The notes: generated by a model not told the origin, from the letters alone. Counted from the first letter of the stretch, positions 3,016-28,998 are shown. The stretch: 32,000 nt of DNA from Opitutales bacterium (GCA_046881885.1 JBKSMP010000024.1:90001-122000), one strand, 5' to 3'. A program made the numbers and translations.

Positions 3016-3091
3016 TGGCGTCCCCTAGGAGATTCGAACTCCTGTTGTCGGGATGAAAACCCGGTGTCCTGACCGACTAGACGAAGGGGAC
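3016..3091 (-). tRNA. tRNA-Glu (anticodon UUC), CCA encoded
   Basis: Reverse complement reads GTCCCCTTCGTCTAGTCGGTCAGGACACCGGGTTTTCATCCCGACAACAGGAGTTCGAATCTCCTAGGGGACGCCA. It folds as a cloverleaf with a 7-nt anticodon loop TTTTCAT (anticodon TTC) and a GTTCGAAT T-loop. Closely resembles E. coli tRNA-Glu. Confidence 0.9.
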
Positions 3092-3153: not shown

Positions 3154-3966
3154 TTAAATTACTTCTTTGGCTATCAATAATGCAACCTGTAGAAGCGTTG
3201 GAAGTACCGGAAGAACCTTCTTAAAAGCCTTTTTAGTCATCCCCCAAGTTGTTTGTAAACAACTACAACATGCATTATCATCTACTACTGTGTTAAACTC
3301 TGAACACAACAACTGAGATACAACAGTAGCAATTTTATCACAAAGATCTCCAGGTGTATCATTAAAAATTTCATATGCAGAACTAACCATATCAAAACCT
3401 ACACCACCAATAGTCTCTCTTACTGCATTTACAAAATTTATATCGACATTACAGATCAATTCCTTGTTAGTAATACCGTCCCACAATACTTTAAAAATTT
3501 CCTTCAAGATCCCTTCTTGATTGTCCAGTCTACTTAAATATTTCCCAGCAAACACACGCATGGTTTCTCGGATAATGCCATTAAATAAAGCATCATTACG
3601 ATCTCCAGCAACTACCAAAAAATCTTCTCCGTTACCAACAACTTCAAGCAAGTCGGCAATAATCTTCTTATCATCCTTCTTCTTAGAATGCTTAAAAAAA
3701 CGTTCTAACAACATCGTTTTCAAAACTTCTGAATTACCTAAAGAAGTCTTAATCATCTGCTTAAATAAAGGATTTTGTAAATAAACAACAAAAGATCGAC
3801 TTGCATCCAGCATAGTCTCCATAAAAACGTTTCGCACCTCTTCTTGTTGTTGCGCATTCAACAAGGATTCTTTCGGAAAATTAAAAAGATCTCCTCGTAC
3901 CAAGGTTGTACAAAATTGAGCAACTAAAACCCATAAACCGACGATAAACTTAATTTGTATTTTCAT
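3154..3966 (-). CDS. hypothetical protein with N-terminal signal peptide and C-terminal hydrophobic segment
   Basis: 270-aa ORF with an ATG start. N-terminus MKIQIKFIVGLWVLVAQFCTTLVRG is signal-like. The C-terminus has a Cys cluster (DDNACCSCLQTTWG) followed by the hydrophobic VLPVLPTLLQVALLIA. No family recognised. Co-directional, 56 nt downstream of waaA. Confidence 0.55.
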   Translation of the reverse strand: MKIQIKFIVGLWVLVAQFCTTLVRGDLFNFPKESLLNAQQQEEVRNVFMETMLDASRSFVVYLQNPLFKQMIKTSLGNSEVLKTMLLERFFKHSKKKDDKKIIADLLEVVGNGEDFLVVAGDRNDALFNGIIRETMRVFAGKYLSRLDNQEGILKEIFKVLWDGITNKELICNVDINFVNAVRETIGGVGFDMVSSAYEIFNDTPGDLCDKIATVVSQLLCSEFNTVVDDNACCSCLQTTWGMTKKAFKKVLPVLPTLLQVALLIAKEVI

Positions 3967-5592: not shown

Positions 5593-6849
5593 TTACGTGA
5601 TTGGTTGTGAAGGTTCATAACGCCGTACAATAACAACCGAATTAATTCCGAGCATTCCAAAAGAATTGTTAAGAATTGTATCTACTTTGTCTAAATGTTT
5701 AGGCTGATTAAGAACCAAATTGTTAAGTGCGCATTCTGGATCCAGTTCATCCACATTAATCGTTGGATGCACGTAATGATCTTCAAATGCAGGTAAATTG
5801 CCTGCCAATTCCAAAGAGCCAGCAGCTCCCATGGCATGACCAATAAAGCTTTTTGTATTATTGAAATACGTATTGGGTGAGTCTTTAAAAACCTCGTGCA
5901 ATGCCTGACATTCTTTAATATCCCCCAAAACCGTAGACGTCGCATGTGTATTGACAATATCAATATCTTGTGGCTTCAAACCTGCCTTATTTAAGGCTAA
6001 TTGAACACATTCAACTTGTCGTTGGCTACAAGGCAAAACGGCACTCTCTGCATCCGAATTAATACCATAACCAACCACTTCTCCATAAATCTTTGCACCT
6101 CGAGCAAGAGCCGCATCCAGTCTTTCTAAAGTAAAGAAACAACCGCCTTCGCTAATAACAATCCCATTACGAGACTTATCAAACGGCCGACTTGCCTTGT
6201 TAGGATCTTCACATTCGGCCAAAGCGCCCTGATTCTTAAACCCAGCAAAAATACCAAAGGTATGGATACTTTCGCTGACACCGCCAACAAGCGCCATATC
6301 CACTTCACCCAAGCGTAACATCTGTACACCTTGGATAAGTCCCAAGTTGCCACCTGCACAAGCACCACCTAAGGTATAATGAGGTCCCGTAATACCTAAA
6401 TTAATCGAGACCTCACCTGCTGGATTATTAGCAACTGTACGCGGATTGTGATGATGATTCCAGTAACGCGTATCATAACCAAACTTCGAGATTTGATAAA
6501 CCTCATTTTCGGTTTCTACATTTCCGTGCTCGGTAATTCCTACATAAATCCCAATACGACTCTTATCAGCATTAGCTAAATCAAAACCGCTCGACTCAAT
6601 GGCTTTGTGGGCACAATAGATACCAATACTTCCGGCACGCGTTCCTGTACGTAATTCCTTCTTTGTCTGATATTCGGTAGCATTAAAGGTACAAACACCT
6701 GCTAAAACAAGTCCCATATAACGCATATCAATTCGCTGAATACGGGCATATCCCTCCAAAAGATGCTTACGAAACTCAACCAAAGAATTTCCATTTGGAG
6801 CCGTTAATCCAACACCCGTAATCACAATGCGCTCAGACAAATTCAACAT
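5593..6849 (-). CDS. beta-ketoacyl-[ACP] synthase (KAS I/II, FabF/FabB-like)
   Basis: 418 aa. Has an active-site Cys (LGGACAGGNLG) and two catalytic His contexts (VNTHATSTVLGD; KSFIGHAMGAAG), with N-terminal ERIVITGVGLTAPNG. This is the thiolase-fold Cys-His-His triad. Confidence 0.9.
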   Translation of the reverse strand: MLNLSERIVITGVGLTAPNGNSLVEFRKHLLEGYARIQRIDMRYMGLVLAGVCTFNATEYQTKKELRTGTRAGSIGIYCAHKAIESSGFDLANADKSRIGIYVGITEHGNVETENEVYQISKFGYDTRYWNHHHNPRTVANNPAGEVSINLGITGPHYTLGGACAGGNLGLIQGVQMLRLGEVDMALVGGVSESIHTFGIFAGFKNQGALAECEDPNKASRPFDKSRNGIVISEGGCFFTLERLDAALARGAKIYGEVVGYGINSDAESAVLPCSQRQVECVQLALNKAGLKPQDIDIVNTHATSTVLGDIKECQALHEVFKDSPNTYFNNTKSFIGHAMGAAGSLELAGNLPAFEDHYVHPTINVDELDPECALNNLVLNQPKHLDKVDTILNNSFGMLGINSVVIVRRYEPSQPIT

Positions 6850-9691: not shown

Positions 9692-9697
9692 TTGCCA

Positions 9698-11509
9698 ATG
9701 GATTTATCTTTGGCACATTTGAAAAAAGTTTTGAAATTCGGTTTGTTTACGCTATTTTTTAGTATAAATCTTTCAGTAAAAGCCTACGTTCCCGCACAAC
9801 TTGAAGGGAAATATGCAATAAAAGAGAATGATACACTATGGGGTACAGATTGGTTTTCTAGCTTCCCAAATAGAAATTTAACCTGCACCCCTAGTGCTAT
9901 GGTAGACGAAGCAGGAGTTTTATGGACTGCATCTTTTGAATATATGCAAGATCATAAAGGACTTGGTTACGAACTTGACTGCCATGAAAGGGTAAATGGA
10001 ACAATCACTTCACAAGAACATCGTTTCTATCCATGGACACTCATTCCAAACGTCACACCAAATTGCGGAAGTGATCCCAACCTTAATACCGGAATCCCAG
10101 AGGATTCAAACTTTTTCCAGAAATACATACACAATATCCTACAACCTTGCATCGCACAAGATATTGAAAATGCTTCTCATGTTTGCATGTTCATTTACTG
10201 TCCACCGACACGTTATATGAATGCTACATGCAACAATCCCAATGCTGAGGGGGGAAGTGTTGAAGGCTTAATGTATTTTGATTTTTATAAAGATTTCATC
10301 AAAGGTACTTATGCAACAAATCTCACTCACGAAACAAATTTTTACTACCATACCGACAATCGCATTTATGCTTTTAATCAGCAAAACTTACGAAAAAGCT
10401 CTGATATGACTCACGTAAATCTAGAAACTGGGAATTACACTGCTTGGCATTATCGTGGATTGGTCCATTTAAATTTTATTGCCACCAATGAAAGTGATGG
10501 CACCTGTCATGCTGTGTATCATCAATATAACAGTCGGTGGTCAGATAGAAACTCCATCACAACAAGAACGACACATGCAACTCATACTACAATAAAAACT
10601 TATCCTCGTTATATAAAATTTGGTGATCATGTGTATGGAATGATTGCCGATTCATGCTTTAATGGCATTTATATCACAAAACAAGGAATAGAAGATTCCG
10701 ACTATACAACCATACAAAACTGGGCCTATCCATTTAACAATATAACACATTATAGTATTTGGGCAGTAGCACACAACTACGACTTTTGTATCGCAAAAGC
10801 AAAAGATGGAACAGGTGTTGTTTGCGTATTAGGATTACGTCCTACTTGCGCTTCATCTGCAGATAAAACTGAATTATCCGCCGCTTATAATAAAGCATGG
10901 AATAATACTTATACAAATTGGAACTCCAGTAATATTTCTGACCCCATTTGCCTTATGCTATCTTCTTGTAGAATGGATAAAACACCAAGTGATAAAACCG
11001 GAACATTTTCCGTAAACAAATACCCCGAACTATGCTATGAATCACCGCAAAACATTATTTATTGCACTGGAAAAACTTCTTTTTCTCAAGCTTGCGATCT
11101 TTATTGTTCTTGTCGTACAGATGATTATGAGTATCACGATACACAGCTTTACAAAAATACACATAAATGCTGTGTTTATACAGCTCCAAGCGGCAATCAA
11201 TACATCATCTATGCTTATTGCTATCCCGGAAAAACAAAAAAATGCTATTTAGGTTATGCACAGTGTATCGTGGATTCCAATTATAAAGTACAACTTCTTA
11301 CAAAAACAGAATTTTCAAAAGAAATTTACAACGAAAAAGGAGAGAGGACAGACATAGAAAGTATAGGAGAGATGAATACTTGCGAATATATCGTTTCACT
11401 CGACTGTAAAGGCCCTGCAGGCAACGAAAATGTATGGCTAACTTGGCGTTATGGGGATTCCCATTACTATCTTTTCCATATCGCCGCCAAAGACCTTGTT
11501 GGAGAATAG
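9698..11509 (+). CDS. hypothetical secreted cysteine-rich protein (orphan)
   Basis: Long uninterrupted ORF. The track start 9692 is TTG; the ATG at 9698 gives 603 aa. Signal-like N-terminus MDLSLAHLKKVLKFGLFTLFFSINLSVKA. I count 26 Cys across the length, including CSC and CC doublets near the C-terminus. Rich in Tyr/Asn/Thr/His. No other hydrophobic segment and no recognised family. Confidence 0.65.
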   Translation: MDLSLAHLKKVLKFGLFTLFFSINLSVKAYVPAQLEGKYAIKENDTLWGTDWFSSFPNRNLTCTPSAMVDEAGVLWTASFEYMQDHKGLGYELDCHERVNGTITSQEHRFYPWTLIPNVTPNCGSDPNLNTGIPEDSNFFQKYIHNILQPCIAQDIENASHVCMFIYCPPTRYMNATCNNPNAEGGSVEGLMYFDFYKDFIKGTYATNLTHETNFYYHTDNRIYAFNQQNLRKSSDMTHVNLETGNYTAWHYRGLVHLNFIATNESDGTCHAVYHQYNSRWSDRNSITTRTTHATHTTIKTYPRYIKFGDHVYGMIADSCFNGIYITKQGIEDSDYTTIQNWAYPFNNITHYSIWAVAHNYDFCIAKAKDGTGVVCVLGLRPTCASSADKTELSAAYNKAWNNTYTNWNSSNISDPICLMLSSCRMDKTPSDKTGTFSVNKYPELCYESPQNIIYCTGKTSFSQACDLYCSCRTDDYEYHDTQLYKNTHKCCVYTAPSGNQYIIYAYCYPGKTKKCYLGYAQCIVDSNYKVQLLTKTEFSKEIYNEKGERTDIESIGEMNTCEYIVSLDCKGPAGNENVWLTWRYGDSHYYLFHIAAKDLVGE

Positions 11510-17172: not shown

Positions 17173-17823
17173 TTAAAATTGATAACGCAAACCAAACTCG
17201 AGCGAATGCATATACGGCGTCTTGAGCGGCTTGATATCAGCATTAAAATCTTTATGCGCAAAGGTTACGGTTTCTGTCTTCATGCAACGATACCCCATGG
17301 TCAACATCCAATTAGAACTGATTTCATAGGATACACCTGCCATAAGCTGACCAGCAAACGCATATTTGACTAAATCGTAGTTTGCATTAAACATAGCATT
17401 TTCATAAAAATGATACTTCAATCGTACAAGACCACAGCCAGCACCGACATAAAAAGAAACCTGATCTTGCAATTTAAAATCATAATATACATTCAACATG
17501 GAAGACAAAGCTGTAAAACGTGCATTTTGACAATCATCACCACCATGATTAAAAATCGTAGCATAATGCTTTGCCGCACGATCTTTCACTTCTTTATTTT
17601 CGTATTGAATAATACCCAACTGAAATCCCAAACGCCAATTATCATATTGGATACCAATTTCGCCATTCAAAAGCGGTGCGCTTTTGTAAGAAACCCCATC
17701 CTTTTTCTGAGGAACACAATAGCCTGCTTTTAATTCAACATACTTACGAAAGGCATTATCTGCATGCAAACAACTCGCACAAACACCTACGAACAACCCA
17801 ATTACTTTTGTACTTACTTTCAT
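17173..17823 (-). CDS. small outer-membrane beta-barrel protein (OMP_b-brl / Opa-Omp25-Msp4-like)
   Basis: 216 aa with a signal peptide (MKVSTKVIGLFVGVCASCLHA). Shows alternating amphipathic strands (YVGAGCGLVRLKY, AFAGQLMAGVSYEIS, WMLTMGYRCM) and a C-terminal ...LEFGLRYQF with terminal Phe, the usual BAM recognition signature. Confidence 0.75.
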   Translation of the reverse strand: MKVSTKVIGLFVGVCASCLHADNAFRKYVELKAGYCVPQKKDGVSYKSAPLLNGEIGIQYDNWRLGFQLGIIQYENKEVKDRAAKHYATIFNHGGDDCQNARFTALSSMLNVYYDFKLQDQVSFYVGAGCGLVRLKYHFYENAMFNANYDLVKYAFAGQLMAGVSYEISSNWMLTMGYRCMKTETVTFAHKDFNADIKPLKTPYMHSLEFGLRYQF

Positions 17824-17920
17824 TTAAAAAAATATTCTCAGATAAGAATCACACAACAAACAGCACAAAGTCAAGCCATCATTACATGAATTTTATTCAA
17901 TTTCACCTAAAATCAAAAAT

Positions 17921-18008
17921 TCCGAACACAAACAGCAGGCCGCCTAATGGAAACTGCCCGACCTCACAATCGGGCAGTAATGTTTTTTTGTCAAATCTTT
18001 TATTTATT
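17921..18008. repeat. copy A of an 88-nt duplicated 3'-end element (last codons + stop + hairpin 17954-17977)
   Basis: tccgaacacaaacagcaggccgcctaatg...ctgcccga-cctcacaa-tcgggcag...ttttttgtcaaat.ttttatttatt. Differs from copy B at 8 of 88 positions by hand alignment. GC-rich 8-bp stem. Confidence 0.85.
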
Positions 18009-18671
18009 ACTTTGCTCAGACATAAGCACATCAAAATCAGATTGTAACCTTGGAGGTATTTGATTTCGATTCGTGTATAATTGACTTGGTGTAATTTTAT
18101 TTGCTCTTATTAATCTAGTAGCTGCATTTTTTTTCCCAGGTGTCGCCGTTCTTTGTATATAATCAAAAATCTGCTGACCAGTAACCCCCTTAGGCTTTCT
18201 TGCTTCTTTTTCACGGCGTCTTTGCTCCTCTGCTTGTGCCGCCTTGCATACTTTACAGGTTTGCCCCATATCCAAAACTTGAACAAGATCACATAAAATT
18301 GTTACTTCCGATAACAAACGATCGCATTTTTCCAACAAAGCGCGATAAACCCTATCCGCATTCAACGGATCCACTTCTAACGTACCCGTATCGGTCGTCC
18401 TAACAGCCAATTCCTGCTTCAAAGTCCGACAATGGTGACGATTCCTTACACCTCGTAAGCGCTGGGCCTCTAGCTCATGCTCCTGTACAAACGCCTCCTC
18501 TACATCACTATCCCAATTATCAACTTCAAATTCATCTAAACGCAATTTCAAAGTTTCCACAGGGCATTGGCCGATCTTGTGATCCATCCCACAAACGTCA
18601 CAAAAATCTCCCCACAAAAGCCCTTGCAAACCCAAACCTAAACCGATACATTTGAACACACTACTCTTCAT
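18000..18671 (-). CDS. hypothetical protein, small paralog carrying the shared C-terminal KPKG-TGQQ module
   Basis: The track ORF starts at a TTG at 18698. The ATG at 18671 is preceded by AAGGAAA and gives 223 aa (MKSSVFKCIGLGLGLQGLLWG...). Two CxxC motifs (CDVC...C, CKVC). The C-terminus AEEQRRREKEARKPKGVTGQQIFDYIQRTATPGKKNAATRLIRANKITPSQLY... aligns with the end of the 797-aa neighbour. Confidence 0.6.
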   Translation of the reverse strand: MKSSVFKCIGLGLGLQGLLWGDFCDVCGMDHKIGQCPVETLKLRLDEFEVDNWDSDVEEAFVQEHELEAQRLRGVRNRHHCRTLKQELAVRTTDTGTLEVDPLNADRVYRALLEKCDRLLSEVTILCDLVQVLDMGQTCKVCKAAQAEEQRRREKEARKPKGVTGQQIFDYIQRTATPGKKNAATRLIRANKITPSQLYTNRNQIPPRLQSDFDVLMSEQSNK

Positions 18672-18706
18672 ATTATCATTTTCCTTTCTTTTAATCAAAC
18701 AAACGC

Positions 18707-18794
18707 TCCGAACACAAACAGCAGGCCGCCTAATGCAAACTGCCCGACTTGATAGTCGGGCAGCAATGGTTTTTTGTCAAATTTTTTATTTATT
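18707..18794. repeat. copy B of the 88-nt duplicated 3'-end element (hairpin 18740-18763)
   Basis: Same sequence as 17921-18008 apart from 8 substitutions, 4 of them in the unpaired centre of the hairpin: 3 in the 6 central loop positions and 1 (a to g) beside the stem. ctgcccgac-ttgata-gtcgggcag gives a 9-bp stem. On the minus strand it is preceded by an A-tract and followed by TTTGCATT. Confidence 0.85.
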
Positions 18795-21179
18795 TTCTTT
18801 TTCTAAACTCTTAAAAGCTTCATGAAAAAATGGATCTAGTTGACTCAAACTTAAATAAGTTGTACCAGGCTGTATTCTTTGGGCTCGCACCGCTCGATTG
18901 GCAAGCATACTTTTTTTAGGCGTACCATGCTGCACGACATAATTTACCAGTTGTTGTCCCGTAAACCCCTTAGGCTTTCTAGCTTCTTCTTCACGGCGTC
19001 TTTGCTCCTCTGCTGCAAGACGTCTACGTTCTGCCTCTTCGCGCTCAAGACGTTCTCTCTCCAGGCGCTGCTGTTCCGCCAACTTCCGCTGTTCTTCTTC
19101 TCTGCGCTTACGCTCCTCCTCGGCTTTCCTTTTCTGCTCTGCCTCTTCCTTAGCTTTACGTTCCGCTTCTTTTTGCTGTCGGCTAAGCTCCGCTTGACGT
19201 TTTTGTTCTGCCTCTAATCTTTCGTTTTCCTCTTCCAATAAAAGCTCTACCCCTCGAACCATATCCATATCCAGCTCTGCCACATCTGATTCCCGCTGCT
19301 TTAGCAACACATCCATCGACGCTTCTATTCTTTGCTGATTAACAATATTTTTCGATCTTTGCTTTAAAAACATATACTTTTCATCCAACTTACCGTAAAT
19401 CGCCTTCTTTTTCCTCTGAAAATGACTTACATCCAACAATTCAAAACATTCTTTCTTCTCATTGTAATCTAAAAACATCGGCTCTGGAAACCGACATTCC
19501 TGCCGAGACACAAAATTCTGAAGCGCTTTAAACAAAAGCTCATCTGTAGCAAAAACATACACTTTAATTTCTAATTGTTGCTTTTGATTTTCTGGACTGA
19601 TCGAATCTTTAATACAAAGAAACTTATCTCCTATCCCTGATCGACCTAAAGAATAATTTGTCAAAACATGCTGCACCTCTGCATTTTTTTCTTTCAAACA
19701 AGATTTCCACAACAAACCATAAAATATATTTTTTAAACTACGCGGACTAAGATACAAAGCTATTGATTTTTCATCTTTTTTGCCGTTTTCAAGAAACTTC
19801 TGCCCCGTTGCTTGACATAAATCTTCACTAATTAACGCATTAAAAGAAGGTTTTAATACTTTACTATTTAAAACACAGGAAGCATTTAACTGCTGCAACA
19901 TAGACACTTTAATTTCCTTTAAAAAATAAAATTTATTATCTTCTATTTGCGGATATAAAGAAATCTCTTCTTCCTTTCCATTATCCCAAAAAATTGATTT
20001 TTTATTGTAAAGACATACAGAAAAAGCTGTTAAATCAACATTCTTATTTTCCATACTTTCCAAGGACAAAAAACAACTTTCCAAGGACAAAAAACAATAT
20101 ATCTCTGGAATAACCACCTTACCTTCTCTTTTTTCTGCAGAAAAGAAAATAAATTTATTTAACGAACCATCGTTCAAAGAAGGAAACCGATCTAAATAAG
20201 TAGAAGCTGATTGTAAAAGCTTCAATTTTTTTTCCCCCCCAAAAAAATGTTGTAAAGCAAAAGCACAAGCCTTTTTATTTGCATAGATATCTTTATCCAA
20301 TTTATCAAAAGAATCAATTTCTTCCTTTGGGCTCAGCTCAACACGATGCGAATCATTTAATAATTCATAAAAACATTCCTTCAATTTGGATTTGTAACCT
20401 TCCGGAAAAATTCTCAATATACCCTGCAAAGGATCTTTAAATTTACAATAAAAATTTTTAATGGAAAGTTCATCAAATTGTTGCATATAAAAAACTAACA
20501 AATTTTTCAATATTTGTTGTAAGGGAAGCAAAACACCTAACTGATTACTTAAGTTTTCTACCGCTATTAAACTAATAAGTACATTTATACAATTTTTGTA
20601 AACTTGATCATTCGCAAAATCATCTACATCTTCGTTTACAAACAATCTAAAACAATGCTTTGCTAAATTTTCATTAAATTCTTCATTTTTACTTAAACTT
20701 ACAATTTCTGCCTTATGTTTTTTTATAAAATCTTTAAACAAATCCTCTTTTTTCTTATAAAATGTACTTTTAATTAAAGTCTTGCCTTCTGCATCTAAAA
20801 CGTCACTAAAATTGTAAAAATAGCTTTCATCAAAATTCAAAGTTGCTGACTGAACACTAAGATGCTGTATATTATACACTAAAAACCTAGCCAAAACCTT
20901 TTGAAGATTTGCTAAAATTTCATATTCTAATGCATCTGTTTTTCCTCTTTCTAAAATCTGTTTTATCTCCTTTGCTGTTTGAGAATAACGATCTTCTTCA
21001 TCTTGCAAACCAAACAAAGAAAAACAATTCTTAATATCATCTTCTCGAAAACTCTTTTTTTTACTCAAATCTTTTATTGTTTGTATATTTTTCTCATTCA
21101 AAAGACGATCCGCCTTTACCGCGCTTAACGAAAAAGCAATAAAAACAAAACACTTAACAATACTATAAATTTTATGCAT
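18786..21179 (-). CDS. hypothetical large secreted protein: AT-rich N-terminal region, E/R/K-rich helical tract, shared C-terminal module
   Basis: 797-aa uninterrupted ORF with an ATG start. Signal peptide MHKIYSIVKCFVFIAFSLSAVKA. About 90 aa of EAEQKRQAELSRQQKEAERKAKEEAEQKRKAEEERKRREEEQRKLAEQQRLERERLEREEAERRRLAAEEQRRREEE. Then ARKPKGFTGQQLVNYVVQHGTPKKSMLANRAVRAQRIQPGTTY... No family recognised. Confidence 0.7.
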   Translation of the reverse strand: MHKIYSIVKCFVFIAFSLSAVKADRLLNEKNIQTIKDLSKKKSFREDDIKNCFSLFGLQDEEDRYSQTAKEIKQILERGKTDALEYEILANLQKVLARFLVYNIQHLSVQSATLNFDESYFYNFSDVLDAEGKTLIKSTFYKKKEDLFKDFIKKHKAEIVSLSKNEEFNENLAKHCFRLFVNEDVDDFANDQVYKNCINVLISLIAVENLSNQLGVLLPLQQILKNLLVFYMQQFDELSIKNFYCKFKDPLQGILRIFPEGYKSKLKECFYELLNDSHRVELSPKEEIDSFDKLDKDIYANKKACAFALQHFFGGEKKLKLLQSASTYLDRFPSLNDGSLNKFIFFSAEKREGKVVIPEIYCFLSLESCFLSLESMENKNVDLTAFSVCLYNKKSIFWDNGKEEEISLYPQIEDNKFYFLKEIKVSMLQQLNASCVLNSKVLKPSFNALISEDLCQATGQKFLENGKKDEKSIALYLSPRSLKNIFYGLLWKSCLKEKNAEVQHVLTNYSLGRSGIGDKFLCIKDSISPENQKQQLEIKVYVFATDELLFKALQNFVSRQECRFPEPMFLDYNEKKECFELLDVSHFQRKKKAIYGKLDEKYMFLKQRSKNIVNQQRIEASMDVLLKQRESDVAELDMDMVRGVELLLEEENERLEAEQKRQAELSRQQKEAERKAKEEAEQKRKAEEERKRREEEQRKLAEQQRLERERLEREEAERRRLAAEEQRRREEEARKPKGFTGQQLVNYVVQHGTPKKSMLANRAVRAQRIQPGTTYLSLSQLDPFFHEAFKSLEKENK
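20056..20097. repeat. perfect 21-bp tandem duplication inside the 797-aa CDS
   Basis: ctttccaaggacaaaaaacaa occurs at 20056-20076 and is repeated exactly at 20077-20097. It is in frame and gives ...CFLSLESCFLSLES... in the protein. Confidence 0.95.
20226..20247. repeat. composite homopolymer tract T8-C7-A7 (coding sense T7-G7-A8) inside the 797-aa CDS
   Basis: Plus strand tttttttt ccccccc aaaaaaa at 20226-20247, encoding HFFGGEKKL. A 7-nt G/C run is conspicuous in a gene that is about 20-25% GC around it. Confidence 0.9.
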
Positions 21180-22724: not shown

Positions 22725-22811
22725 TGGTGGTGGGGGAGCGATTCGAACGCTCGAAAGGGAAACCCTGACAGATTTACAGTCTGCATCCTTTAGCCACTTG
22801 GATACCCCACC
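22725..22811 (-). tRNA. tRNA-Tyr (anticodon GUA), long variable arm, CCA encoded
   Basis: Reverse complement reads GGTGGGGTATCCAAGTGGCTAAAGGATGCAGACTGTAAATCTGTCAGGGTTTCCCTTTCGAGCGTTCGAATCGCTCCCCCACCACCA. Acceptor GGTGGGG/CCCCACC, anticodon loop CTGTAAA (GTA), class II variable arm and a GTTCGAAT T-loop. Confidence 0.9.
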
Positions 22812-23491: not shown

Positions 23492-25180
23492 ATGGACGAA
23501 GCATTAAAGAATCCAGAAAATGTTTTAGTGGAGAACGCAGATGTTCCTACCAAACCTCGAGTAAAACGGGCGCGTAAAGCGGTTACAAACAAATCTACCG
23601 AAGATACGAATACCCCTTCGGCAGATATCACAATGGAAGCAGTTAAGGAAACTATAGACTCAAAACCTACACCTACAAATGAACCTCCCAAAGAGCTTAT
23701 AAAACCTAAAGCTCATATTAAAGAAACAAACAGTCTACAACCTTATCGAAAAAACCCTAACAATAAAAATACAAATAATGCCAAGCAAACGACTTTATCC
23801 CCTCATTTACAACGATATCGGTGGTGGATGGGACAATTGAATCAATGGCGAAATATCGGCGACATTCATTCCATAACCAATTTAATAACAGAGGTTACGG
23901 ACCCTGCATTGCCTGCTTTTTCATTCAATGAATGGTACGACAAACCTCTAAAAGAACTTCTCGAAGGTATTCCTGCAGAATCGCAACTAACCTCTTTAAC
24001 TCGACAAAGCATTTTAAGGGAAAAGATGCAAGTTGCTTGTGAACATAAGCAAGCTATTTGTATTGAAGGTGTAGTTGCAAAAGTTCCAAACACAGAAGAA
24101 TGGTGTGTTTGTTATGCTTCTGATAATTATCAATTACGAGAACTAAGCGCCTATCTTCCTAAGGTTTTAGTACGTAAACACGGAATACGTCCAGGACAAA
24201 CCATACAGGCACAAATTTTCATGTCGCCAACACATGTCCAATGTCCTTGCGTTATTAAAATCAATACCGTCATGGAGAAAACTCCAGAAGAAATGCGTAC
24301 CATTCCGCATTTTAAAGAATTGACGCCGTATTATCCTACAGAACGTATTTTGCTGGAAATAAAACCGGAAAAAGGTTGGGACAATAATGCCATGCGTATT
24401 GTGGATATTTTGACACCCATCGGCTTTGGACAACGTGGACTTATTGTGGCGCCACCAAGAACCGGTAAAACAGTTTTACTGCAAAACATAGCTCATTCGA
24501 TCGTTAAAAACCAGCCACAAGCACATCTCATTATCCTTCTTATTGATGAGCGTCCTGAAGAAGTAACAGACTTCAAAAACTTATTACCCGGCATTGAGGT
24601 TATTAGTTCAACCTTTGATGAATCTCCCGAAAGCCATGTACGTGCAGCTGAAGTCGTTATTGAAAAAGCCAAACGTTTGGTAGAAATCGGCGAAAATGTA
24701 GTTATCCTTTTAGACTCCATTACACGTCTAGCACGAGCCTATAATACGATTATTCCAAGTTCTGGAAAAGTTCTTTCGGGAGGTGTTGAAGCCAATGCGC
24801 TCCAAGGTCCAAAAGCCTTTTTTGGAGCTGCTCGTAACATTGAACAAGGCGGAAGTTTAACAATATTAGCAACCGCATTGATCGATACAGGCAGCAAAAT
24901 GGATGAAGTTATTTTCGAAGAATTTAAGGGCACCGGCAACATGGAACTTCATCTCGATCGTTCGCTCATTGATAAACGCGTTTTTCCTGCTATCAATATC
25001 GAAAAGAGTGGAACTCGTAAGGAAGAACTCCTTTATCATCCGGATGAATTACACAAGATTTATGTTTTGCGTCGTGCCTTAAAGGGAGTCATTTCGCCAA
25101 CAGAATCGATGGAAATGTTACTCGATAGAGTTCACAAAACCAACAATAATATCGAATTTTTAATGTCCATTAACGGTTAA
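23492..25180 (+). CDS. rho: transcription termination factor Rho with about 145-aa N-terminal extension
   Basis: 562 aa. Walker [16 protein letters not shown], Walker [17 protein letters not shown] loops ([11 protein letters not shown]; SGGVEANAL), and the C-terminal ...[27 protein letters not shown]. The first about 105 aa are K/P/T/N-rich low complexity. Confidence 0.95.
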
Positions 25181-28452: not shown

Positions 28453-28998
28453 TCAAACATCAGTACCCCGTAGTTGCTTCCACTTACGAAACATACGAGT
28501 GCGTTCAGGAAGAGGATCTGGAGGTAAAGTAGTGAACCATTTTAGGTCTAAAGACTCATCGGATAATTTTATAGCATCATCAGGCTGAGTGGTTTTTAAC
28601 AAAAAGCGAATATCGTAATGCCAATGATCGGGTTGTGATTTTATGGAAAAAAGATGTACACTAAGATCGAAAATACCTTCTTTAGCAAGTTCCAAGTGTT
28701 CTAAGCCGGACTCTTCATAAGCTTCCTTAAAAGCAACAGCCAAAATATCCGTATTGCCATCTGCATGTCCACCTACTTGAAGCCAAAAACCTAGCTTTTT
28801 ATGCAAAGTTAACAGAAATTTATCCCCTGTAGCGTTTTCAATCCAGGCGGAACCCGTTATATGTCCAGGAAGGTAGTTCCGATCAAAACACTTGTCACCA
28901 TGCTCTTGAACAAATGCAATCGTTCGCTTTAAATCTTCAGCTTCTGTCTTATCTTCAGGTTTGTATGCAAAAAGCAAATCCAACAACGACGTACTCAT
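28453..28998 (-). CDS. NUDIX hydrolase
   Basis: 181 aa. Nudix box GGHADGNTDILAVAFKEAYEESGLE fits GX5EX7REUXEEXGU, with K in place of R. Confidence 0.8.
   Translation of the reverse strand: MSTSLLDLLFAYKPEDKTEAEDLKRTIAFVQEHGDKCFDRNYLPGHITGSAWIENATGDKFLLTLHKKLGFWLQVGGHADGNTDILAVAFKEAYEESGLEHLELAKEGIFDLSVHLFSIKSQPDHWHYDIRFLLKTTQPDDAIKLSDESLDLKWFTTLPPDPLPERTRMFRKWKQLRGTDV

Follow-up and report, generated by a model that had tools for sequence, protein, structure and literature searches.

In the babA/babB genes of the Hop family of Helicobacter pylori, and in the opa genes of Neisseria, near-identical end segments enclose divergent middles, conversion between paralogues creates chimeras, and homopolymer or dinucleotide tracts shift the reading frame. 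The streptococcal genes for M and M-like proteins (emm/mrp/enn) lie in tandem and recombine with their neighbours, and each product runs from a signal peptide through a variable N-terminal part and a long helical stalk to a C-terminal region that is shared. In the orphan cdiA-CT/cdiI and rhs-CT cassettes of polymorphic toxin systems, a conserved junction precedes a replaceable C-terminal segment, and a downstream copy has a homology arm; in proteins of the TolA/TonB type, the C-terminal domain contacts outer-membrane partners. Here we compare with these systems a tandem gene pair found in 32,000 nucleotides of an Opitutales bacterium (GCA_046881885.1, JBKSMP010000024.1:90001-122000), a stretch that we call the window and whose positions are counted from its first letter. 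Two adjacent minus-strand genes, a large one at 18786..21179 and a small one at 18000..18671, end in the same C-terminal module, and we consider it reasonably probable, though by no means certain, that the module belongs to a recombining cassette carried on envelope proteins.

The two proteins resemble one another only in their tails. In BLASTP, residues 734-797 of the large protein align with residues 167-232 of the small one (numbered in the 232-aa open reading frame (ORF), 18000-18698, within which the annotated start of the small gene is the ATG at 18671), with 41% identity over 66 residues and an E-value of 2e-11. The module of the large gene (18789..18980, minus strand; RKPKGFTGQQ...EKENK) is 64 aa long with an isoelectric point (pI) of about 10, and that of the small gene (18003..18200, minus strand; RKPKGVTGQQ...SEQSNK) is 66 aa long with a pI of 10.4. 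At the DNA level the likeness is concentrated at the two edges. The 5' patch, which covers the end of the stalk and the residues ARKPKG, lies at 18961..19014 in the large copy and 18181..18234 in the small one (both minus strand), and differs at 3 of 54 positions (96% identity). The 3' patch, at 18697..18794 and 17911..18008 respectively (both minus strand), has 88% identity across 98 nt, and 90% when the 89 aligned columns are counted; it takes in the last codons, the stop codon, a hairpin (18737-18763 and 17951-17977) whose 10-bp G+C-rich stem is kept while the loop differs, and, downstream of the hairpin, a 29-mer (18707-18735 and 17921-17949) that is identical in both copies. Between the patches identity is 45% over 176 columns. 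A two-breakpoint maximum chi-square test with 300 permutations placed the breakpoints at columns 54 and 226 of 314, with 44% identity inside them and 92% outside; the observed chi-square was 80, against a permutation maximum of 24.7, and none of the 300 permutations reached the observed value. An independent Logan assembly (SRR26713999; L007) carries an identical small gene and an identical translated large-gene tail (96 aa), so the arrangement in the window is not an assembly artefact. What the two copies share is a duplicated cassette of ~320 bp, consisting of distal stalk, module, stop codon and hairpin.

Why is the centre of the cassette so divergent when its edges are so alike? Alignment of ten module copies, from the window and from related contigs that we refer to as L001 to L008, separates module types whose cores are ...RAQRIQPGTTYLSLSQLDPFFHEAFKSLEKENK (type A), ...RANKITPSQLYTNRNQIPPRLQSDFDVLMSEQSNK (type B) and ...NRNVIVPATLYTDPNQLPLKYRQYFSIIMSEQN (type C). 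The large gene ends in type A in the window and in L003, in type C in L006, in L005 and at the contig start of L002, and in an A/B chimera in L001; the sequence labelled MAG_large resembles type A over columns 94-140 and type B over columns 154-258. The small gene ends in type B in the window, L002 and L006, and in L003 in a hybrid with a novel 5' part and a type-A 3' part, the 3' half of this module matching the large-gene module from that genome at 97-100% identity. The nearest relative of the type A module in the window is the large-gene module of L003, with 79% nucleotide identity in the centre. Between the window and L006, DNA identity is 82-89% elsewhere, yet the large-gene module has been replaced outright. 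These comparisons indicate that the divergent centre represents distinct, old module types, at least three in number (A, B and C), and not simple divergence after a duplication.

The edges behave differently from the centre. In the 3' patch the two window copies (W_large and W_small) are 90% identical, compared with 68% between W_large and its orthologue E3_large of L003. The distal flank of W_large, which holds the 29-mer, is 86-97% identical to the small-gene flanks and only 47-63% identical to J6_large of L006; the 29-mer is missing from the large-gene flank in both L006 and L003, implying that it is a conversion tract and not a deeply conserved element. By these measures the patches evolve in concert, being closer within one genome than between orthologues. 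The locus thus presents clustered near-identical patches, concerted evolution and chimeric or exchanged alleles, the marks of the gene-conversion class, with some of the contigs concerned being short or co-assembled. Gene conversion within the tandem pair, together with allelic exchange between strains, is the best explanation of the mosaic.

Much of this had been proposed in the initial annotation, which was made from the DNA alone. The common C-terminal module, the count of three differences in the 5' patch, the near-identical 3' patch and diverged centre, and a mosaic in place of uniform divergence all reappear in our alignments and in the chi-square test; the proteins belong to no recognised family in Pfam or NCBIfam, the large protein has what is predicted to be a typical Sec leader, and the gene downstream encodes a small β-barrel, all as described there. 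Two causes had been suggested for the conserved edges. Gene conversion is borne out by the greater closeness of the patches to their paralogue than to their orthologue, whereas nucleotide-level constraint at both edges is not needed, given the large-gene flanks of L006 and L003 that lack the 29-mer.

Selection has acted on both the module and the genes that carry it. Within types, the ratio of nonsynonymous to synonymous substitution rates (dN/dS) of the modules is 0.11-0.39, which argues that the module cores are functional protein sequence. The ratio is 0.30-0.36 for the large gene and 0.14-0.20 for the N-terminal part of the small gene. Between the window and L006, amino-acid identity is 70% for the N-terminal part of the large protein, 81% for that of the small protein, 88% for the outer-membrane protein (OMP) encoded next to them and 93-95% for adjacent housekeeping genes, with dN/dS of 0.30, 0.14, 0.125 and 0.05 respectively for the large and small N-terminal parts, the OMP and the neighbours. 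The large, small and OMP genes evolve faster than neighbouring genes.

Every module type is basic, with a pI of 9.1-10.4. An AlphaFold2 model of the 74-aa tail, built on a 7-sequence alignment, has a mean predicted local distance difference test score (pLDDT) of 83, above 90 in the core, and shows a short strand, helices at 18-28 and 31-42, a second short strand and a helix at 60-73. The module is thus modelled as a basic domain of ~64 aa with three predicted helices and a small β bridge. G, P, I, Q and F occupy the invariant positions and look structural, not catalytic. The tails end in EKENK, SEQSNK or SEQN and have no hydrophobic stretch. Pfam and NCBIfam hold no family for any module type, and profile and structure searches of the tail (hidden Markov model libraries and Foldseek) matched no characterised cytoplasmic domain.

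Several more specific identities for the module were considered and set aside. An excisionase- or MerR-like helix-turn-helix (HTH; family HTH_17), raised by the string ...SRLIRAGKIKP... and by matches to P0004 and P0006, has no profile or fold support: no HTH family matched the modules at E ≤10 or the whole proteins at E ≤1, Foldseek of the module model against the PDB gave nothing below E 3, and P0004 and P0006, which are tandem HTH_Tnp_1 proteins, match the profile through a TGQQIV string in their linkers. A leucine-rich repeat was suggested by one unit-like stretch (I.P..LYL..NQL.P....F..L; E 0.027 to lamprey VLR chains), each matched part of which is insignificant by itself; tandem repetition and a Pfam LRR match are both lacking. 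A resemblance to Rhs/TccC proteins amounts to noise-level matches. Covalent anchoring of the Lpp kind through the C-terminal lysine is rejected, since several alleles have N in place of the terminal NK.

The module is rare. A module profile searched against 1.84 billion representative proteins (E ≤1e-3) gave eight matches, four of them true: the large protein itself (P0001 in that library), P0002, P0003 and the distant P0007. The other four, which are repeat proteins, owe their matches to short strings. A pattern scan of 185,579 species-representative genomes found a single metagenome-assembled genome (MAG), named 'uncultured Opitutales bacterium' (L001 and L002), whose two loci with three module copies may reflect strain mixing; the 32-kb window has two copies. 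Scans with the module alignment, two of metagenome contigs and one of viral contigs, yielded no relatives, tblastn against phage and plasmid collections found nothing, and a word-indexed homologue search with the module as query likewise returned nothing. Looking up the sample accessions in the literature also gave no result. L006 shares the full gene order YbeY, antiporter, large gene, small gene, OMP, ProRS, and L003 has the tail of a large gene followed by a small gene. In L004 the module ends P0007, a protein of 697 aa with a leader, an N-terminal region unrelated to that of the large protein in the window, and an E/K stalk; this N-terminal region, used as a query in homologue searches, returned orthologues or itself alone. 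The module is therefore found behind three unrelated N-terminal parts, those of the large protein, the small protein and P0007. In L005, positions 1-480 hold a CotJA-like N-terminus and unrelated upstream DNA fused to the tail of a large-gene orthologue; L005 is probably a chimeric metagenome scaffold, and P0002 would in that case not be a natural protein.

The cassette is also linked to a second kind of envelope gene. Immediately downstream of the small gene, at 17173..17823 on the minus strand, lies a gene for an 8-stranded OMP β-barrel of 216 aa (PF13505, E 3.4e-14), and a gene ending in stalk and module precedes the OMP gene at every locus examined (the window, L006, L002 and L004). The orthologue in L006 is 88% identical and that in L004 46%, the latter starting 9 nt past the stop codon of P0007 in a different genomic context. 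Directly downstream of it, at 4060-4317 of L004, is a fragment that by eye resembles the N-terminus of an IS30-type transposase; upstream, L004 carries a guanylate-kinase-like sequence and a 153-aa gene.

The large protein (797 aa; ACLRFH_04100, annotated by NCBI as a hypothetical protein of an Opitutales MAG and encoded on a contig of 128.7 kb) consists, in order, of a Sec-type leader, an N-terminal region of ~615 aa, an ER/K-rich helical stalk and the module. The predicted Sec signal peptide (MHKIYSIVKCFVFIAFSLSAVKA, followed by D; 21111..21179, minus strand), read from the sequence, has an 11-aa Kyte-Doolittle maximum of 2.46, close to the value for the OMP leader, and is kept in the orthologues P0009 and P0010. 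Orthologues of the large protein are 69-72% identical, and homologue searches with its N-terminal part returned orthologues or the query alone. The charged stalk (18981..19259, minus strand), rich in E, R and K, spans ~90 aa (about residues 641-733) and differs in length among orthologues. The only Pfam or NCBIfam matches of the protein, weak ones to MAP7 and TolA, come from this low-complexity stalk. Across the window, L001, L006, L003 and L004 the stalk varies widely in sequence and length, from roughly 60 to 110 aa in the large gene and from 10 to 40 aa in the small gene, and in L003 it is mostly without ER/K richness. Within the N-terminal region, a perfect 21-bp tandem duplication at 20055-20097 (2.0 copies, 100% match) gives CFLSLES-CFLSLES, a unit that is single-copy in P0009 and P0010, and G+C content falls to 27.9% over 20001-21000, compared with ~38% across the window.

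The small protein (223 aa; ACLRFH_04095, a hypothetical protein; minus strand), for which Pfam and NCBIfam hold no family, begins with a hydrophobic N-terminus (MKSSVFKCIGLGLGLQGLLWG), carries the motifs CxxC-x8-C and CxxC, retains very little of a stalk and ends in the module. Its leader appears weaker and less typical than the Sec-type leader of the large protein. Orthologues are present in L002, L003 and L006, in all of which the CxxC-x8-C near the N-terminus and the CxxC just before the stalk are kept (18222-18671); these cysteines could make a zinc site or, if the protein is exported, disulfides. Two further cysteines are tyrosine in P0003. In L006 and L002 the small gene has a stalk of 30-40 aa, which is homologous to the distal part of the large-gene stalk, and this homology reaches further upstream than in the window, implying a deletion there in the window small gene. 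The left edge of the 5' patch is the boundary of that deletion and is specific to the window genome.

Within the small-gene module lies a homopolymer tract, G3A8 (18127..18137, minus strand), which is in frame in the window. Elsewhere it is one base shorter, G3A7 in L002 (~917-926) and G2A8 in L006 (~6363-6372), and the protein is then truncated at ...GKKMQ(Q/L)LD*. L003 has an independent frameshift (T6 versus T7, ~1800-1806), which likewise breaks the module frame. In each frameshifted allele the downstream frame stays open as far as the normal stop codon, and after correction of the frame the type B modules have a dN/dS of 0.19-0.31, calculated from few substitutions. This pattern of frameshifts, open downstream frames and dN/dS may reflect slippage-driven on/off switching of the small-gene copy; alternatively, out-of-frame alleles could be rescued by transcriptional slippage or by -1 ribosomal slippage on A-AAA-AAA.

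Put together, these features suggest the following scheme. Both genes would encode lineage-restricted, Sec-exported envelope proteins of uncultured Opitutales (Verrucomicrobiota), each ending in a distal charged ER/K helical stalk followed by the basic domain of ~64 aa. Homologous recombination, as gene conversion between the tandem copies and as allelic exchange between strains, would yield the conserved-diverged-conserved mosaic, with the conserved edges (the 5' patch upstream and the 3' patch downstream) serving as homology arms. It would thereby reshuffle at least three old, divergent versions of the core, each kept functional by purifying selection. The module is probably a polymorphic binding head, held on its stalk in the cell envelope and perhaps acting with the adjacent 8-stranded barrel, while the small-gene copy may be switched on and off through slippage in G3A8. 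The proposed exposure in the envelope is suggested by the leader-like N-termini, as read from the sequence, and by the adjacent OMP gene.

Several observations weigh against this scheme. Only about ten module sequences are to hand, and short metagenome contigs supply part of the evidence for type swapping: L001 and L002, products of a co-assembly, are both broken precisely at the repeat, L005 is probably chimeric, and both genes are spanned on one contig only in the window, L006 and L003. The AlphaFold2 model of the large N-terminal region is unusable (pLDDT 40). Foldseek found no fold match for the module model in the PDB (best E 3) or in BFVD (best E 0.5), so that the term 'binding head' derives solely from architecture. 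Lastly, the small-gene module is out of frame in three of the four lineages (L002, L006 and L003), which could reflect decay instead of switching.

If that were so, the small-gene module would be a non-functional remnant of a partial duplication with no biological role. The loss of most of the stalk from the window small gene, as well as the broken frames (A7 in L002, G2 in L006 and T6 versus T7 in L003), would fit such a remnant. However, the copy in the window is undamaged and was recovered identically in an independent assembly, the frame remains open to the same stop codon in every case, and the frame-corrected type B modules still show the dN/dS given above, albeit from small substitution counts. 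The three frameshifts, moreover, arose independently, each through the change of one base in a homopolymer, as is typical of slippage, and we regard decay as unlikely.

A second alternative concerns the role of the module itself. It might be a signal at the C-terminus for sorting, for secretion or for anchoring, recognised by one machinery and carrying different passengers to the surface or outer membrane, as would befit a module that is C-terminal behind three unrelated N-terminal regions, on proteins with leader peptides and next to a conserved OMP gene. A signal read by a single machinery should be conserved, yet identity between the copies of one genome is just 41%, and in DNA the types are more than 50% different. 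Carriers are few, two in the window and two loci with three module copies in the related MAG, and the tail is polar and basic, with neither a hydrophobic segment nor a known motif; nor is the terminal NK kept, other alleles ending in SEQN. The window has no sortase, exosortase or type IX secretion system (T9SS) genes nearby, Pfam and NCBIfam gave no sorting-domain match, and the AlphaFold2 model is mainly helical. A sorting role is thus decidedly unlikely. The initial annotation had envisaged a modular family of secreted or surface proteins with a shared targeting, anchoring or binding domain, and part of this survives: the module does occur behind three unrelated N-terminal parts and always beside an OMP gene. 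The broader claim does not, given about two carriers per genome, four true matches in 1.84 billion proteins, and a tail whose lack of hydrophobicity and within-genome divergence are unlike those of a single-machinery sorting signal.

The edges could instead owe their conservation to a function of the nucleic acid, the 3' patch acting as an RNA element, terminator or promoter and the 5' patch as a regulatory or structural element. In favour of this, a hairpin occurs at the same place in L002, L003 and L006, and its stem is kept while the loop varies, one-sided changes preserving the pairing. Its folding z-scores are modest, however (-1.3 and -2.7), the sense strand has only three U residues after the stem, and no Rfam family was found in the flanks at gathering thresholds; the 29-mer beyond it is, as described above, dispensed with in two large-gene flanks, and the 5' patch lies within the coding sequence of a conserved peptide. 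Constraint of this kind, which we consider improbable, cannot account for chimeric alleles or type swapping.

Very improbable, finally, is a polymorphic-toxin-like system, in which the large protein would deliver a variable C-terminal toxin after an ARKPKG-TGQQ junction and the downstream copy would be an orphan replacement cassette: the wholesale replacement between strains of the segment after the conserved junction (a resemblance of layout only), a second copy with the same upstream homology arm, and weak, non-significant profile matches to the Rhs-family chain 9zdm_B (E 0.38) and TccC2 (E 0.69) are outweighed by one predicted fold and hydrophobic core shared by all module types, invariant residues (G, P, I, Q, F) none of which is of catalytic type, PDB matches at noise level, no toxin or immunity family in Pfam or NCBIfam, no CdiB, type VI secretion system or Rhs-core genes in the window, and no candidate immunity gene, the next gene being the small gene, which has a conserved N-terminal region, a ribosome-binding site and a start of its own, and the OMP following after 9 nt in L004.

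The remainder of the window is largely housekeeping in character, with aminoacyl-tRNA synthetases, KdtA, FabF, Sua5, DciA, UppP, YbeY, Rho, a kinase and an NtrC-like regulator, and among its genes there are none for secretion or mobile elements. Three ORFs have no Pfam match at E ≤1e-5: 9692-11509 (plus strand, 605 aa), 3154-3966 (minus strand, 270 aa) and 28453-28998 (minus strand, 181 aa). The Rho-like protein, recognised by eye at 23492-25180 (plus strand, 562 aa), has a long polar N-terminal extension before its conserved core. ARAGORN calls an 87-nt tRNA-Tyr at 22725-22811 (minus strand), and a scan of Rfam at gathering thresholds listed only a tRNA-Glu at 3019-3091. Outside the window, short-read contigs of several independent assemblies start or end in or beside the repeat: L001 ends just past a module stop codon, L002 begins within the 5' patch, L007 begins slightly upstream of that patch, in the stalk, and L008 begins at the 3' flank. 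It seems that assemblies are broken by the repeat, and more than one strain may be present.

If a recombining cassette on envelope proteins is indeed what the two genes carry, the locus would provide a compact, cassette-style form of variation in a poorly studied, uncultured lineage of the Verrucomicrobiota, in which both copies are expressed, the homology arms are conserved and the old head types number at least three. It also suggests, in concrete terms, what the small OMP barrel may do and with what partner, and it draws attention to a possible contingency locus in a microbiome member. A bolder proposal can be framed, in which the stalk-plus-module proteins and the barrel form an undescribed envelope system of gut Opitutales whose polymorphic, swappable head, of new fold, recognises a host ligand, kin or phage (as receptor or decoy) in a strain-specific way, while the second head is a phase-variable spare and a conversion donor; we think this rather unlikely. 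The practical value is modest, namely a flag for an assembly-breaking repeat and a new domain profile for family databases, and the locus has no bearing on any long-standing open question.

How, then, does the locus compare with the systems set out at the beginning? The TolA/TonB proteins share with it an N-terminal hydrophobic segment, a long extended spacer and a small C-terminal domain. The likeness to TolA itself, however, is confined to the stalk (TIGR02794, 15.1 bits against a cut-off of 59.45); the module matches neither TonB_C nor TolA domain III, a large extra N-terminal domain is present, and the window has no TolQR or ExbBD genes. The module tails similarly show no motif, hydrophobic helix or family match of the PEP-CTERM, LPXTG, GlyGly-CTERM or T9SS C-terminal domain kinds. 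With the orphan CT cassettes the locus has in common the conserved junction, the replaceable C-terminal end and the downstream copy with its homology arm. It differs in that neither an immunity gene nor a toxin domain, conserved catalytic residue or delivery apparatus was found in the window, and in that the downstream copy is part of a complete gene under purifying selection.

The streptococcal M proteins resemble it in overall design, with tandem genes, a signal peptide, a variable N-terminal part, a long stalk, a shared C-terminal region and recombination. They belong, however, to monoderm bacteria, are anchored to the wall through LPXTG and carry their variable part at the N-terminus, whereas the Opitutales host is diderm, its proteins have no LPXTG motif or hydrophobic tail, and the C-terminal module is their most polymorphic segment. 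The bab/Hop and opa genes are likewise paralogous envelope genes with similar ends, a divergent middle, chimeras created by conversion, and frame-shifting tracts, and no sequence or fold relationship was found between their products and the proteins of the window. In those large families the C-terminal region that the members have in common is a β-barrel membrane anchor. At the present locus the common part is a soluble basic domain of ~64 aa carried by a charged stalk, a separate gene encodes the barrel, and only two copies are seen per genome. The evolutionary pattern is a familiar one, carried in this case by a protein family that is rare and unnamed.

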